The notes: generated from the sequence alone by a model not told the origin. Shown: positions 21,958-55,701, counted from the stretch's first letter. The stretch is DNA of 64,000 bases from an uncultured Clostridiaceae bacterium (GCA_948356915.1 CAOJCG010000002.1:128484-192483); one strand, 5' to 3'. A program made the numbers and translations.

Positions 21958-23055
21958 TTATTGTTTTATTTTTAGTTCCTTTAATATGTCTAATATATTC
22001 AGTTTCTTATTTAAATCAATATCTGCTTTTTCAACAATATAAAAAGTATCATGGTAAGTTTGTGTATAACTTTCTATGTATTCAATTTGTTGATATGTAC
22101 ATATATATACATCAATTCTAAACCTTTTATCTGGATAAGGTATTTCTAATATTAATTTTTCATCTTCATATGCATAGCAATTATTATACTCATCTATTTC
22201 ATTTAGTGCTATGAATAAAATTTCATCACCACTTATATGATATAGCCTTGTAATTTGATCTTCTTTACTGCATCTTCTATAATTCTTCGTAATATCTGCA
22301 ATTACTTTTTCAGAATTAAATTTAGGATTTAAATTTGTGACTATATTGTTATATATAAATATGTATATATTTTCATTCCAATTTGGCCTTGCCCTAAGAA
22401 GCACATTTTTACACATTCTACCTCTACGCCCTGTTTTTCTTAGCCTTTTGCTTCTCATTCTCTGACTTTCTTTATCAAAATTCGAATAAGATATATGTTT
22501 ATCTTTCAGCCTTTTTTTTAAAATTTTATTTATTATTTTTCCTCCAAAGTCTCTTTCATATGTATATTCTTCTTTCCCATTTATTATCACTTTATATTTT
22601 ACTTTATTATCCATAACAAAATTATCTTTTATTTCAAGTAAAACATCATGGTCTGAATATCCTAGTGTATATGCATTAGATATAGCAGTTATAGTTATAT
22701 TAATATTTCGTTCCTCACTTTTAAGTTCATATTGCTGTATTATTTCTTCAGTACTTTCTTCTTCTGCATAGTTATCAGTACATTTAAATAAAACATTTGT
22801 TATTCCTCCTACAATGGTACTATCCATATGTAATACAGGATAGTACATTTGTACTTTCCTTTCTTGGTCAAAGTAACTTCCAATCTCATACTCCCCAAAA
22901 ATTAAATTTTTCCCTACATATTCTCTAATCCGCTCTTCATTTTTTCTTGAAGCCTCTTTTAGTTTGTTTAATACTTCTTTTTGTTCTTTTATTTTTGTGT
23001 CAATAACTTTTTTTGTTTCGTTGTACTCTTTTAGCTTTTCAAAATACAATTCCAT
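21958..23055 (-). CDS. Hypothetical 365-aa protein with an N-terminal coiled coil and a basic KRLRKTGRRGR patch.
   Basis: ORF track. Contains an in-frame CGG (Arg42) that is read through normally. Confidence 0.5.
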   Translation of the reverse strand: MELYFEKLKEYNETKKVIDTKIKEQKEVLNKLKEASRKNEERIREYVGKNLIFGEYEIGSYFDQERKVQMYYPVLHMDSTIVGGITNVLFKCTDNYAEEESTEEIIQQYELKSEERNINITITAISNAYTLGYSDHDVLLEIKDNFVMDNKVKYKVIINGKEEYTYERDFGGKIINKILKKRLKDKHISYSNFDKESQRMRSKRLRKTGRRGRMCKNVLLRARPNWNENIYIFIYNNIVTNLNPKFNSEKVIADITKNYRRCSKEDQITRLYHISGDEILFIALNEIDEYNNCYAYEDEKLILEIPYPDKRFRIDVYICTYQQIEYIESYTQTYHDTFYIVEKADIDLNKKLNILDILKELKIKQ

Positions 23056-23297: not shown

Positions 23298-23561
23298 TTA
23301 TTCTAGTATGCTTATTGGATATTTTGATCTAATTATTTTCCTTACTCCTTCCCCATCGTCTTCAATATCCTGTGACTCTATTAATCTATAAAGTCCGTTT
23401 AAATACCATTCTGTAATTTTTTTATTAATGTCATTTTCTAAGCTTACTATTGCTTTTTCTTTAGTTTCAAATTCTTTTCCCAGTCCATACTTATACCACC
23501 GAGTTTTTTCTTCTTTGTATTCATATTTCATGCATATATCCTCCTTAATCTGTTTTTGCAT
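23298..23561 (-). CDS. Hypothetical 87-aa protein.
   Basis: ORF track. Confidence 0.4.
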   Translation of the reverse strand: MQKQIKEDICMKYEYKEEKTRWYKYGLGKEFETKEKAIVSLENDINKKITEWYLNGLYRLIESQDIEDDGEGVRKIIRSKYPISILE

Positions 23562-24986: not shown

Positions 24987-25409
24987 AATACTACCCCTTT
25001 TTATTTTGGTGGTAACTAAAATTATAATTATAACTTTAGAATTCTTTTTGTATTATACTCTATATATTATTACAATTCAATACTTTTTAGAATTATTTTG
25101 TTACTTTTTTCTTTTATGGTAGCAAGAAAATAAAAAAATTTTACAAAATGGATTGACATATGTAAACATTTGTTTTATTATATAAATATAATATTATTGT
25201 ACAAAATTACAAATGTATACAAAATTAATATTATATGATAAAATATTTACGTAGAAAGAAAATATTATGTTACAAGAATTAGATAATTTAATTAACTTTA
25301 TACAAATTGAATATATGATTTTACAAATAAATGGGAACAAAGCAGTTATTTTTCTAAAATTAATTTAAAAGATACCTTAATTTGTGATGTACTTCAAAAT
25401 AAAATATTA

Positions 25410-25880
25410 TTGGATGCAATTATTAATTATAGAGAATTTATTAACGAAAATAATATACAATTATTAATGGATTTTAAACAATTTAATACAAATGAATCTA
25501 AAATTAATATTAGAACTAAAGCCAAAAACTCTATAGAATATAAAATAAAAAATTATATTGAAAATCATGAAGATGGAAAGGTACCAATAAATAAATGTTT
25601 TAACGATTTATTTGGAATAAGAATTATATGTGAAAATACACTTACACATAATGAAATTTTAAATTTAGTAAATAATAAATATACTGGTCTAAAATGCATA
25701 AACTCTTCTAAATTAAACTACAAAGCAACACATATATACTTTAAAAAGAATAACTTTAGTTTTCAATGGGAATTACAAATATGGAATAAGGTAGATGAAA
25801 TTAGCAATATAAATTCTCACGAAAAATACAAACAAGATTATGTTAGATGGGAAATTGAAAATAAAGGAGGTAGAAAATAG
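25410..25880 (+). CDS. RelA/SpoT-homolog synthetase-domain protein, small alarmone synthetase-like (toxSAS-like candidate toxin). The start may be the ATG at 25386.
   Basis: RTKAKNSIEYKIK matches the RxKxxxSxxxK motif. DLFGIRIIC matches DxxGxRI. YKATHIYF and FQWELQIW match the YxSxH / EIQIRT motifs of the RSH synthetase fold. Confidence 0.65.
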   Translation: MDAIINYREFINENNIQLLMDFKQFNTNESKINIRTKAKNSIEYKIKNYIENHEDGKVPINKCFNDLFGIRIICENTLTHNEILNLVNNKYTGLKCINSSKLNYKATHIYFKKNNFSFQWELQIWNKVDEISNINSHEKYKQDYVRWEIENKGGRK

Positions 25881-26632
25881 TGGTAACACATTTTATATTT
25901 ATGAGTAGTTCTTATTCACTAGGAACAAGAATTGCACTTGATTTTATAGTTGAAGATGCAAGCATACAAGAAGAATTGAAAAAAGACTTAGATACCATAA
26001 TTTATGAATGTGGTAGAGATGTATCTATTTCAACACATATGATACAAGCAGATAATGAATCTTGGGAGTCAGTATGCAATTCAGACCACTTTTTTAAAGG
26101 TGTTAAAGTAATAGAAGATTTAGAAACATTTATTAGCCTCATAAAAAAGGATAGAAAGTTACTTGGAATAGATATAGCAAAATACATTCTATCTAAAGTT
26201 AAATGTACACAACTAAAACTACAAAAATTAGTATATTTATGCTTTGCAGACTATTTATGTGATACTGGTAAAGCATTATTTACAGATAAAATATATGCAT
26301 TTAAATATGGTCCTGTTATAGACACAGTATATAAAAAATATAAAGAATATGGTTACGAAGCAATTGAAGAAGAAACTGGCAATATTGATAGTAACGATGT
26401 ATTTGAAATGCCTGCTAAAAGTAGAATATTATTTGCAGAAGATGGTACAGGAAAAATAATAAGCATAGAAAAAACCTTACAAAAATATGGTGAGTTAACT
26501 GCTTCAGAATTAGTAGGTATAACACATAAACCAAATTCACCTTGGAATAAAACTTATAAAAATGAAGATGTAACATTTTCACAAATAGAATTAGATACTA
26601 TTAAAGAATATCACAAATATGAACTAATATAG
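25880..26632 (+). CDS. Panacea (DUF4065) domain protein, PanA-like candidate antitoxin. Translationally coupled to the upstream gene (TAG/GTG overlap).
   Basis: KLQKLVYLCFADYL...FKYGPVIDTVYKKYKEYG...LTASELVGITHKPNSPW matches the DUF4065/SocA-GepA signature. Confidence 0.6.
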   Translation: MVTHFIFMSSSYSLGTRIALDFIVEDASIQEELKKDLDTIIYECGRDVSISTHMIQADNESWESVCNSDHFFKGVKVIEDLETFISLIKKDRKLLGIDIAKYILSKVKCTQLKLQKLVYLCFADYLCDTGKALFTDKIYAFKYGPVIDTVYKKYKEYGYEAIEEETGNIDSNDVFEMPAKSRILFAEDGTGKIISIEKTLQKYGELTASELVGITHKPNSPWNKTYKNEDVTFSQIELDTIKEYHKYELI

Positions 26633-26853
26633 CTTAATATTTAAAACTTATTTTTATTTTAAACTAAAAGGCACAGTATGGTTTTGTCATATGAGTCATT
26701 TCTAAAAACGTTGCCTATACAAGCCCAAATTATCTTCCTTATTTAGCAAGAAACCTGCATAAAGTCGTTTATTATTTTTATTTAAGTTATATAAATAACC
26801 TTTCATATGATATTTTATTATAAATAAAATTACAAACTTGCAAAGTATTTTAA

Positions 26854-27666
26854 TTAATACTCTGCAAGTTTTATTCTATCCCCTATGCTATCATCTTTTA
26901 ATAATTTGCTAGCAACATTTATAAAGTTTGTTTCCATATCTGTTAAATATATTTCATATTCTTTTGTAATCTGCTTATTATTAGTTATATTCTTTTCTTT
27001 TAATATTTTATTTAAACTTCTTGCTAATACTTCTCCTGTATTTATTACATCTACACTATCCCCTATTTGCTCTTCTATAACCTTTTTAAACAGTGGGTAA
27101 TGTGTACATCCTAATATTAGGCATTGTATATTTTTAAGACCTTTTAGATATTCTGCTACTACTAATTTTGCAATTTCATTTTCTGTCCAGCCTTCTTCTG
27201 CCATTGGAGCTAATAATGGGCATTCTCTATTTATTACATTTGCATTTTTTATTTTTTTATCAATTTTATTTTTCCATCCATTACTTCTTATCGTTCCTCT
27301 TGTTGCCATAACTCCTATATTTTCATATCCTTTATTTTTTATATATTCTACAGTGGAATCTATTATTCCTATTATTGGTATGTTATAGCATTTTTGCATT
27401 TCTTCTAAAGCTTGTGATGTAGCTGTTCCACATGCTATTATTATAGCTTTTACCTCTTTTTTTATTAAAAAATTTATTGCATTTTTACATAAGTTTATTA
27501 TACTTTCTTTTGTTTTATTTCCATATGGGAAAGATTTGGTATCTCCTAAATATATTACCTTTTCTCCTACACATTCTTCGAGTACTTCTTTTAATACTGT
27601 TAGACCTCCTACTCCTGAGTCAAACATTCCTATTGGTCTTGTATCCATTTTTCTTCCTCCTACCAC
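26854..27666 (-). CDS. murI: Glutamate racemase.
   Basis: GMFDSGVGGLTV, LGDTKSFPYG and GCTHYP motifs. Confidence 0.9.
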   Translation of the reverse strand: MVGGRKMDTRPIGMFDSGVGGLTVLKEVLEECVGEKVIYLGDTKSFPYGNKTKESIINLCKNAINFLIKKEVKAIIIACGTATSQALEEMQKCYNIPIIGIIDSTVEYIKNKGYENIGVMATRGTIRSNGWKNKIDKKIKNANVINRECPLLAPMAEEGWTENEIAKLVVAEYLKGLKNIQCLILGCTHYPLFKKVIEEQIGDSVDVINTGEVLARSLNKILKEKNITNNKQITKEYEIYLTDMETNFINVASKLLKDDSIGDRIKLAEY

Positions 27667-27777: not shown

Positions 27778-28242
27778 ATGGAATATGATAAAAATGTATG
27801 CCCTGTAGTAGATGTTGATGGCATTATAGCTTCTGGTAAACAATTTGACCTTGAAATAAAACTTCCAGAAGATAACAGAAATGTTATATATGGAGTTGTT
27901 AAAGATTGCTATGGTGATCCAATTTGTGATGCGGTTGTAAAATTAATAGAAGTTGTATGTGAATGTGGTAAAGAAGAAAGAAGACCTGTTTCTCATACTT
28001 TTACAGATAAAGAAGGAGAATTCGTTTTCGGACCTTTATGTGATAATAAATTTTATGAAATCCAAATATGGGTTGACCGTGTAAGACACTGCAAAATATG
28101 TACAGAAGTTAAACACGAAGGAAAATGCCTAAAAGGTGTAAAAATGGATTGTAAACATGACTGCAAATGCGAAAGACCTTGCGAAAAACCTTGCTTAAGA
28201 ACTGAAGTTTCTGAAGAATGTTGTGAGGATATCGATGAATAA
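27778..28242 (+). CDS. Cysteine-rich hypothetical protein, with a prealbumin-like N-terminal domain and a C-rich C-terminus.
   Basis: ORF track, with an RBS aaaggatg. 20 Cys in 154 aa. Confidence 0.45.
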   Translation: MEYDKNVCPVVDVDGIIASGKQFDLEIKLPEDNRNVIYGVVKDCYGDPICDAVVKLIEVVCECGKEERRPVSHTFTDKEGEFVFGPLCDNKFYEIQIWVDRVRHCKICTEVKHEGKCLKGVKMDCKHDCKCERPCEKPCLRTEVSEECCEDIDE

Positions 28243-54673: not shown

Positions 54674-55040
54674 TTATTCTTTTGCTCCTTTTTACTTTTT
54701 TCTCAATTAACATTTTTGTGTCAAAAAAGGACGTCTTTTTTTGACAGTCCATTTTATTAAAAATTATTTAGATGGTAAAGGCCTAAGTAAATTTTACGGT
54801 TTAGGTCTAGAAGAATTTCTCTATTTTCTACTAACCATTACTGTTTAGCCGTTTCCGTTTAAAGAAAATATCTCCTACTACTATGTATAAAAGTAATAGA
54901 TAGAAACCAGATCGCCACTTAAAATCCGTACCTTAATCCATAAGCCTCCATGCTTTTAATTTAAAGCAAACATTCTAGAAGTTTTCCTTGGGCATACTAA
55001 AAGCTATTGCTAGTCTTTTTTGCAATAATAGTTTCATAAC

Positions 55041-55158
55041 TATAAAGAAGCTATAAAAAGGTGTGTCAAAAGGGATTGGGGATATTGACATACTTTATTT
55101 TTTAAAGATGTGTCAATATCCCCGTCCATTTTGACACACTTTTTTATAGCTTCTTTGG
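55041..55158. repeat. Composite nested palindrome. Outer inverted repeats ataaagaagctataaaaag / cttttttatagcttctttgg enclose two GTGTCAA...TTGACAC hairpin units.
   Basis: Read directly from the sequence. Confidence 0.6.
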
Positions 55159-55701
55159 AAAATTAAATTTGGCCAAATTTAATTTTCTTTTTAGTTAATC
55201 CCAGTATTATCACTCGAGACAGGCTACGCTATGCGTTTTATGTCTTGGCATTCAGCATAGGTTACTCTTAAGCATTTTTCTAAAAAGGTTTCATTAGATA
55301 TATTGCCTAAGCCTCCGCGAAAATAGGGCTTCCTTATATATGCCATTATATAATACCCTAATTTCTTACTCCCTGGATACACACAAAACTGGCATTTCGC
55401 GCATAAACAAGAAACTTCAACGATGTGCCCTTTAGTGGATTTTTAGCCCCACCCTCACAATAGTTGTATGCTACTAGAATAATGCACCATCGTTTTTATT
55501 ATAGCATATTTTTCCAAATTTTCAAGTTCATTTATTGTTATTTCACTTAATTTTCACAAAAATATGATATTAAATATAAATATAGAGGCATTATATATAA
55601 ATTGTTACATAAAAAATATCTAAAACCTCTTGTATTTAATTCAATTATGTGTTATTATATTAAATAGTCAATTTAACAAAAACTTATAGGAGGTGTAAGA
55701 A

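Follow-up and report, generated by a model that had tools for sequence, protein, structure and literature searches.

The closest described relatives of the locus analyzed here are the PhRel2:ATphRel2 toxin-antitoxin (TA) pairs of Bacillus subtilis Ia1a and Lactobacillus animalis, which were assigned to toxin group T11 (PMC8832971) and to node D8 (PMC10440598). T11 (Dataset S1 of Kurata et al., 2022, PMC8832971) includes the experimentally validated PhRel2 toxins of these two bacteria together with gp12 of Geobacillus phage GBSV1 and gp31 of Paenibacillus phage Lily, and the PhRel2 group thereby extends to the phage pairs gp12/gp13 and gp31/gp32. PhRel2 and FaRel2, the latter from the FaRel2:ATfaRel2 pair of Coprobacillus sp. 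D7 (PDB 8PU1, 8PU3, and 8PU4; PMC11782079), have been reported to inhibit translation by pyrophosphorylating tRNA at its 3' CCA end. Against this background, we examined a locus in a stretch of 64,000 nucleotides (nt) from an uncultured Clostridiaceae bacterium (GCA_948356915.1, CAOJCG010000002.1:128484-192483), referred to below as the window, in which positions are counted from the first letter. The locus consists of a toxic small alarmone synthetase (toxSAS) gene followed by a gene for a Panacea-domain antitoxin (PanA), and it is very probably a type II TA cassette of the PhRel2-type toxSAS:PAD1-PanA kind whose module is defunct as a toxin system in this genome, with the orphan antitoxin intact.

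An earlier note on this DNA had described the first gene as a small RelA/SpoT-type synthetase of 156 amino acids (aa), beginning at 25386 and translationally coupled to the downstream gene. The motifs of the RelA/SpoT homologue fold on which that description relied, RTKAKNSIEYKIK, DLFGIRIIC, and YKATHIYF...FQWELQIWN, are all present in the open reading frame (ORF) at 25410 to 25880 (+). The Pfam searches proposed in the note gave significant matches for both genes: RelA_SpoT (PF04607) aligned with the 156-aa fragment over profile positions 2 to 111 of 113 (E = 1.7e-6; 28.8 bits versus a cutoff of 27), and SocA_Panacea (PF13274) aligned with residues 114 to 222 of the 250-aa product of the ORF at 25880 to 26632 (+) (64 bits versus a cutoff of 25.7). 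FaRel2 was the sole significant sequence match in the PDB (E = 1.5e-5 for one sequence as the query; E = 3.8e-7 for a profile of the family), and no significant match to CapRel was obtained in the PDB searches with either query. An AlphaFold2 (AF2) model of the 204-aa toxin encoded by intact relatives (mean predicted local distance difference test score [pLDDT] of 86; predicted template modeling [TM] score [pTM] of 0.83) retrieved FaRel2 as the top Foldseek match (E = 2.5e-7; TM scores of 0.54/0.68), followed by the housekeeping small alarmone synthetases (SAS) RelQ and RelP. The residues invariant in the family (R83, K85, S89, K93, D114, G117, R119, Y152, E169, and Q171) correspond by alignment to R64, K66, S70, K74, D90, G93, R95, Y128, E145, and Q147 of FaRel2, which crystallographically bind ATP and Mg2+ and form the G-loop (PMC11782079). 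Every catalytic residue is retained in the window remnant, among them the Mg-binding Asp, the G-loop Tyr, and the ExQ motif.

Comparison with phage proteins placed the toxin more closely. The 204-aa toxin shares 35% identity with GBSV1 gp12 (E = 2e-30), tblastn detected Lily gp31 and other homologues in Paenibacillus and Streptococcus phages (E = 1e-20), and PHROG 4012 matched toxin residues 1 to 196 (E = 8.6e-40). PADLOC v2 returned no match for the toxin or the antitoxin, and NCBIfam returned nothing for the toxin. Judged by these sequence relationships, the intact relatives are toxSASs that belong with the PhRel2-type (T11) group, and their clade could be a sister subfamily to PhRel2 rather than PhRel2 proper. 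As with PhRel2, a single-domain toxSAS lies upstream of an antitoxin of ∼250 aa with an N-terminal PAD1 domain and a C-terminal Panacea domain, in the order toxin then antitoxin, and the hosts are Firmicutes and their phages. In contrast to PhRel2, the window relatives form a separate clade that is found almost only in metagenome-assembled genomes (MAGs) of uncultured Clostridia and Bacilli from the gut and rumen; the toxin is ∼204 aa long versus 224 to 241 aa in the phage examples, and in the window it is frameshifted. Identity to FaRel2 is only ∼20%, and ATfaRel2 is a stand-alone pZFD of 74 residues, whereas the counterpart domain in the window is fused to Panacea. By analogy with these relatives, and in view of the conserved N-terminal extension with its invariant L34 and K35, we infer that intact members of the clade would pyrophosphorylate tRNA CCA ends. 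With that activity taken from its relatives, the window pair would resemble CapRel(SJ46) as a tRNA-pyrophosphorylating toxSAS controlled by a domain of pseudo-ZBD fold, and CapRel of Vibrio harveyi is likewise neutralized by a PanA; unlike the window pair, however, the phage defense protein CapRel(SJ46) is one fused polypeptide, and the clade of the window is not known to have a phage trigger or a role in defense.

The start and length given in the earlier note did not survive comparison with orthologues. Position 25386 is occupied by a GAT codon, which is not a start; the intact orthologue of the toxin gene comprises 615 nt (204 aa), and the window gene starts at ATG 25267, so that 156 aa reflects a frameshift artifact and not a small family size. 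Among the best cluster representatives of relatives of the first ORF, 111 of 120 are 200 to 220 aa long, and the nearest relative, P0001, is 97% identical and has 204 aa. The 48 residues missing from the ORF are present upstream of 25410, where MLQELDNLINFIQIEY is encoded from ATG 25267 in one frame and (N)DFTNKWEQSSYFSKINLKDTLICDVLQNKIL runs into the listed 156-aa ORF in a second frame. Alignment of P0001 to the window by tblastn placed residues 1 to 16 at 25267 to 25314 in frame 1 and residues 18 to 204 at 25317 to 25877 in frame 3. DNA alignment with intact alleles located the loss of a single A after codon 16 (25314/25315), affecting codon 17 (AAT); the window reads GAATAT-ATGATT versus GAATATAATGATT in the intact alleles, a change of AA to A outside any long homopolymer. 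Translation from ATG 25267 stops at TAA 25366-25368 after 33 aa, and the genome of the window holds no intact translatable ORF for the toxin. Overall, the toxin gene is a pseudogene, and the 156-aa "small synthetase" is its tail, equivalent to the last three-quarters (3') of a gene for a 204-aa toxSAS.

A sequencing or assembly error would leave the strain with an intact 204-aa toxin and an active module. The source is probably a MAG, since the annotation of close relatives reads "MAG: Clostridia bacterium," and single-base indels occur in such assemblies. Against an error, the identical deletion was detected by DNA alignment in the window and in the sister contigs L003 and L004, while it was absent from L001 and L002; the deletion-bearing assemblies besides the window derive from runs SRR30218847 and SRR30218823, which were separately assembled. 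The deletion also co-occurs with the lineage-specific changes E3Q, V80I, and TTA to TTG. Recurrence of the deletion in two other assemblies, at a site with no long homopolymer, favors a real allele over a sequencing error, and we consider an active module hidden by such an error to be improbable. The antitoxin P0121 is carried by 10 other contigs of the same species, and in every one of them an intact 204-aa toxin is encoded at this locus. The changes private to the window lineage amount to E3Q, V80I, the deletion, the TTA-to-TTG substitution, and T61S in PAD1, and so few added changes suggest, at the sequence level, that the knockout of the toxin is recent.

A genuine 156-aa toxSAS, translated from 25410 or nearby and neutralized by the downstream PanA, was the next alternative to be weighed. 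The 156 aa include all of the catalytic motifs, TTG at 25410 is restricted to the frameshifted lineage (window, L003, and L004), intact alleles having TTA, and a few other short versions of 137 to 188 aa have been produced by database gene callers. However, the 48 upstream codons are clearly present, out of frame, and another 156-aa representative, P0116, is likewise the result of a frameshift, in that case a 4-bp duplication. No Shine-Dalgarno sequence was found before TTG 25410 or before the next ATG at 25467; since none precedes TTG 25410, the restriction of this codon to the frameshifted lineage is probably a coincidence, although it creates a misleading ORF. The N terminus argues in the same direction. 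In FaRel2, tRNA binding requires the N-terminal helices alpha1 and alpha2, which pack into the core, and K28 and R29, in the loop that follows these helices, are crucial for it (PMC11782079). In the AF2 model of the 204-aa toxin, residues 2 to 24 form a confident helix alpha1 (pLDDT of ∼95), and the loop of residues 25 to 37 behind it holds L34 and K35 (the NLK loop), which are invariant even in phage homologues. The 156-aa fragment would retain its catalytic motifs and lack both helix alpha1 and the NLK loop, and a 137-aa restart product would lack all of the N-terminal helices. Because the restart products lose helix alpha1 and the NLK loop, the model makes a functional toxin from the window allele unlikely, and a genuine 156-aa toxSAS appears highly improbable.

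Bypass of the frameshift by programmed -1 ribosomal frameshifting or transcriptional slippage, yielding a regulated low level of toxin, is exceedingly unlikely: a -1 shift anywhere in 25311 to 25365 would rejoin the toxSAS frame, and a T5 run is located at 25350 to 25354, but no canonical slippery heptamer (X XXY YYZ) able to rescue the frame was found in frame, a shift at the T run would substitute other residues at 13 conserved positions, the invariant W23 among them, and all sister alleles are simply in frame.

In contrast to the toxin gene, the antitoxin gene is intact. The earlier note had assigned no function to the N-terminal extension of ∼90 aa, which proved to be the published PAD1 domain. 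All 120 of the closest antitoxin relatives align over the full 250 aa, and for this reason the extension is a conserved domain and not the product of a miscalled start. Residues 1 to 105 alone matched, from residue 1, both GBSV1 gp13 (YP_764469; 38% identity, E = 7e-22) and Lily gp32 (YP_009202238; E = 1e-17), which are labeled PAD1 in Dataset S1 (PMC8832971). PAD1 is the only widely conserved PanA extension that is not a helix-turn-helix, it almost always occurs with a toxSAS, and the toxin is always encoded upstream (PMC8832971); the arrangement in the window, with a toxSAS partner encoded upstream, matches this rule. PAD1 alone neutralizes PhRel2 of B. subtilis, and an H52P substitution abolishes neutralization (Ernits et al., 2023, PMC10440598); the same study reported a shared fold and toxin interface for PAD1, D27, and the pseudo-ZBD and proposed the Panacea domain as a sensor or platform. 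The PAD1 residues H4, Y12, R17, H53, and W62 are invariant, H53 aligns with H52 of GBSV1, and the domain has a predicted pZFD- or pseudo-ZBD-like fold with the conserved His of strand beta3. The YXXY motif, the neutralization motif of ATfaRel2 and CapRel (PMC11782079), is absent from antitoxin residues 1 to 105, and in this respect the window PAD1 differs from both; a conserved SWxSV follows beta3 instead. The window antitoxin and P0121 are identical at 249 of 250 residues, with S61 in the window and T61 in P0121. This T61S change, private to the window antitoxin, adjoins the invariant W62.

The Panacea/DUF4065 domain is shared with SocA of the type VI system SocAB, in which SocA is a ClpXP adaptor. 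The window antitoxin scored 84.2 bits against the NCBIfam SocA model NF047745, versus an equivalog cutoff of 190, and does not qualify as SocA; unlike SocA, its partner is a toxSAS and not SocB, and PanAs of the window type act by direct binding. A PDB sequence search with the antitoxin and a PHROGs search with PAD1 alone returned nothing. In the AF2 model of the antitoxin, the Panacea region was poorly predicted (pLDDT of <50 for residues 136 to 188), and no conclusion was drawn from it. The pairing of PAD1-PanA with toxSAS has already been described, and the window locus is a further, here decayed, member.

The distribution of the cassette was scanned with one genome per species; 306 genomes held a relative, and the loci described below (L019 to L098) are the best 80 of these 306. 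Almost all are MAGs from the gut or rumen that represent uncultured Clostridia, Lachnospiraceae, Oscillospiraceae, and Bacilli, and one represents the species of the window, with an intact toxin. In all 80 loci, the toxin is followed directly by a full-length PAD1-PanA, and the family assignment of the earlier note, toxSAS first and Panacea protein second, is borne out. The flanking genes vary between species, as expected for a mobile cassette. The order SDF transporter, TA pair, and murI was compared across species and recurs only within the same species; the cassette is accordingly no vertically fixed feature of the core genome.

Decay was counted over 79 loci, a locus cut by a contig end being left out. 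Nonsense codons, frameshifts, or loss of the 5' portion disrupted the toxin in 11 of the 79 (L029, L042, L049, L054, L059, L062, L064, L086, L095, L096, and L097); the lesions in two of these (L042 and L096) are TGA codons at Trp positions and might reflect recoding, for a total of roughly 9 to 11 disrupted toxins. In-frame stops in the antitoxin ORFs numbered 0 in 80. A separate knockout was detected in another species, where a 4-bp AACT tandem duplication at codons 21 and 22 (L017, 2856 to 3471; L018, 815 to 1430) leaves a downstream ORF of 156 aa (P0116) and an intact PAD1-PanA of 251 aa, in the context nrdD ... Sua5. The region 25267 to 26632 of the window was compared with L001 to L014. 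Among intact-allele strains of the window's species, the antitoxin showed no nonsynonymous differences and at most 8 synonymous ones, and the toxin showed 0 to 6 nonsynonymous and 0 to 7 synonymous differences; constraint within the species is much stronger on the antitoxin than on the toxin.

These results also bear on whether the first gene might encode a housekeeping SAS, a RelQ- or RelP-like (p)ppGpp synthetase with an unrelated downstream neighbor. This is exceedingly unlikely. In its favor, RelQ and RelP rank as next-best structural matches; against it stand the strict pairing with PAD1-PanA in all 80 loci (the two genes overlap or adjoin, and the genomic site varies), FaRel2 as the sole significant PDB sequence match, a FaRel2-like N-terminal helical extension with no RelQ/RelP C-terminal oligomerization bundle, the existence of phage-borne relatives, and recurrent disruption of the first gene alone, which fits a toxin.

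In the module as we propose it, the intact first gene would encode a 204-aa single-domain pyrophosphokinase of RelA/SpoT fold, and the second gene, overlapping it by 1 base, would encode the antitoxin, whose PAD1 domain may bind the toxin and block it. PAD1 would adopt a pseudo-zinc-finger-like fold like that of ATfaRel2 and the pZFD of CapRel, and the C-terminal Panacea domain may serve as an accessory or possible sensor module. The overlap of stop and start codons has a geometry that would suit translational coupling. In the window, the orphan antitoxin is strongly conserved and probably still expressed. A different reading is that, once the toxin was lost, the orphan PAD1-PanA has been kept under strong purifying selection for a job of its own, for example, neutralizing PhRel2-type toxSASs of phages or prophages (anti-addiction or immunity), or that TTG 25410 yields a truncated toxSAS with no tRNA anchor and with altered substrate choice; we regard this as a slim prospect.

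Several points weigh against the reading of the locus as a decayed PhRel2-type cassette. The Pfam RelA_SpoT match is borderline, since against the cutoff of 27 bits the full-length P0001 scores 26.6 and the fragment lies just above. Toxin function in the clade is argued from comparison with relatives, and the tRNA target is drawn from relatives that are only 20 to 35% identical. The equivalence of the NLK loop with FaRel2 K28/R29 and that of H53 with H52 of B. subtilis are likewise putative. The three deletion-bearing assemblies may not be independent, two being neighboring run accessions and the window possibly belonging to the same study, and translation may restart at ATG 25467 or at TTG 25410, a codon specific to the lineage.

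Features of the locus are listed in the table. The window has a G+C content of 27% and represents a Firmicute chromosome. The translational overlap claimed in the earlier note was confirmed, in that the toxin stop codon TAG 25878-25880 shares its last base with the antitoxin start GTG 25880-25882 (a 1-nt overlap). The best promoter match lies ∼85 nt 5' of the true toxin start and is identical in intact sister alleles. A direct repeat in the promoter region (TACAAAATTA, present twice) was considered as an operator and dropped, as it is not kept in the 97%-identical intact allele. The locus order in the window's species is SDF (sodium:dicarboxylate symporter) transporter, toxin, PanA, and murI, with rpoD and dnaG nearby. 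No second toxSAS or PanA copy was found in the 64-kb window, and an Rfam search detected no RNA family in or near the TA locus.

Table. Features of the toxSAS:PAD1-PanA locus (window positions)
Feature	Position	Strand	Basis or remark
Sigma-70-like promoter, best match	25153..25181	+	TTGACA, 17-nt spacer, TATTAT; 11/12 consensus match; putative function
toxSAS (PhRel2-like) gene remnant, pseudogene	25267..25880	+	tblastn of P0001 and DNA alignment with intact alleles
5' fragment, present translation product	25267..25368	+	MLQELDNLINFIQIEY, then 17 out-of-frame residues, TAA 25366-25368; 33 aa
Deletion site	25312..25319	+	Alignment with intact alleles
156-aa ORF from TTG = toxSAS residues 49-204	25410..25880	+	Mechanically listed ORF
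Shine-Dalgarno GGAGG of antitoxin	25866..25870	+	9 nt before GTG, inside toxin 3' end
Intact PAD1-PanA antitoxin gene, 250 aa	25880..26632	+	GTG start
PAD1 domain, about residues 1-92	25880..26155	+	Predicted beta-beta-alpha-beta-alpha-beta-alpha; presumed toxSAS-neutralizing
Panacea (DUF4065 / SocA_Panacea) domain, residues 114-222	26219..26545	+	64 bits, profile 1-112/113; FKYGPV motif

Downstream of the TA locus, a hairpin with a 16-bp stem was predicted at 26834 to 26871 (minus strand) as the murI terminator, and no plus-strand terminator for the TA operon was predicted in the 220-bp spacer at 26633 to 26853. A cysteine-rich protein of 154 aa is encoded between murI and rpoD (27778 to 28242, +); its position is conserved in the species, and its only Pfam match is a weak, subthreshold one to a beta-sandwich (NOMO1-like). 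Beyond the symporter gene, ORFs of 365 aa (21958 to 23055, -) and 87 aa (23298 to 23561, -) had no Pfam match, and the sister contigs L001 and L003 carry size-matched genes (364/365 aa and 77 aa) at this position. Elsewhere in the window, a full-length ornate large extremophilic (OLE) RNA was detected at 54756 to 55506 (-) (Rfam RF01071; model positions 1 to 616 of 616; 287 bits versus a gathering score of 50), the sole Rfam match in the 64 kb.

The correction that there is no "minimal" 156-aa toxSAS matters little beyond annotation. The PhRel2-type toxSAS:PAD1-PanA cassette is very frequent among uncultured Firmicutes of the gut and rumen, a relative being encoded in 306 species-representative genomes, and its toxin has been knocked out repeatedly and its antitoxin never, a neat example from nature of how TA modules decay asymmetrically. 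The disrupted toxins are natural loss-of-function alleles for the study of toxSAS toxins.

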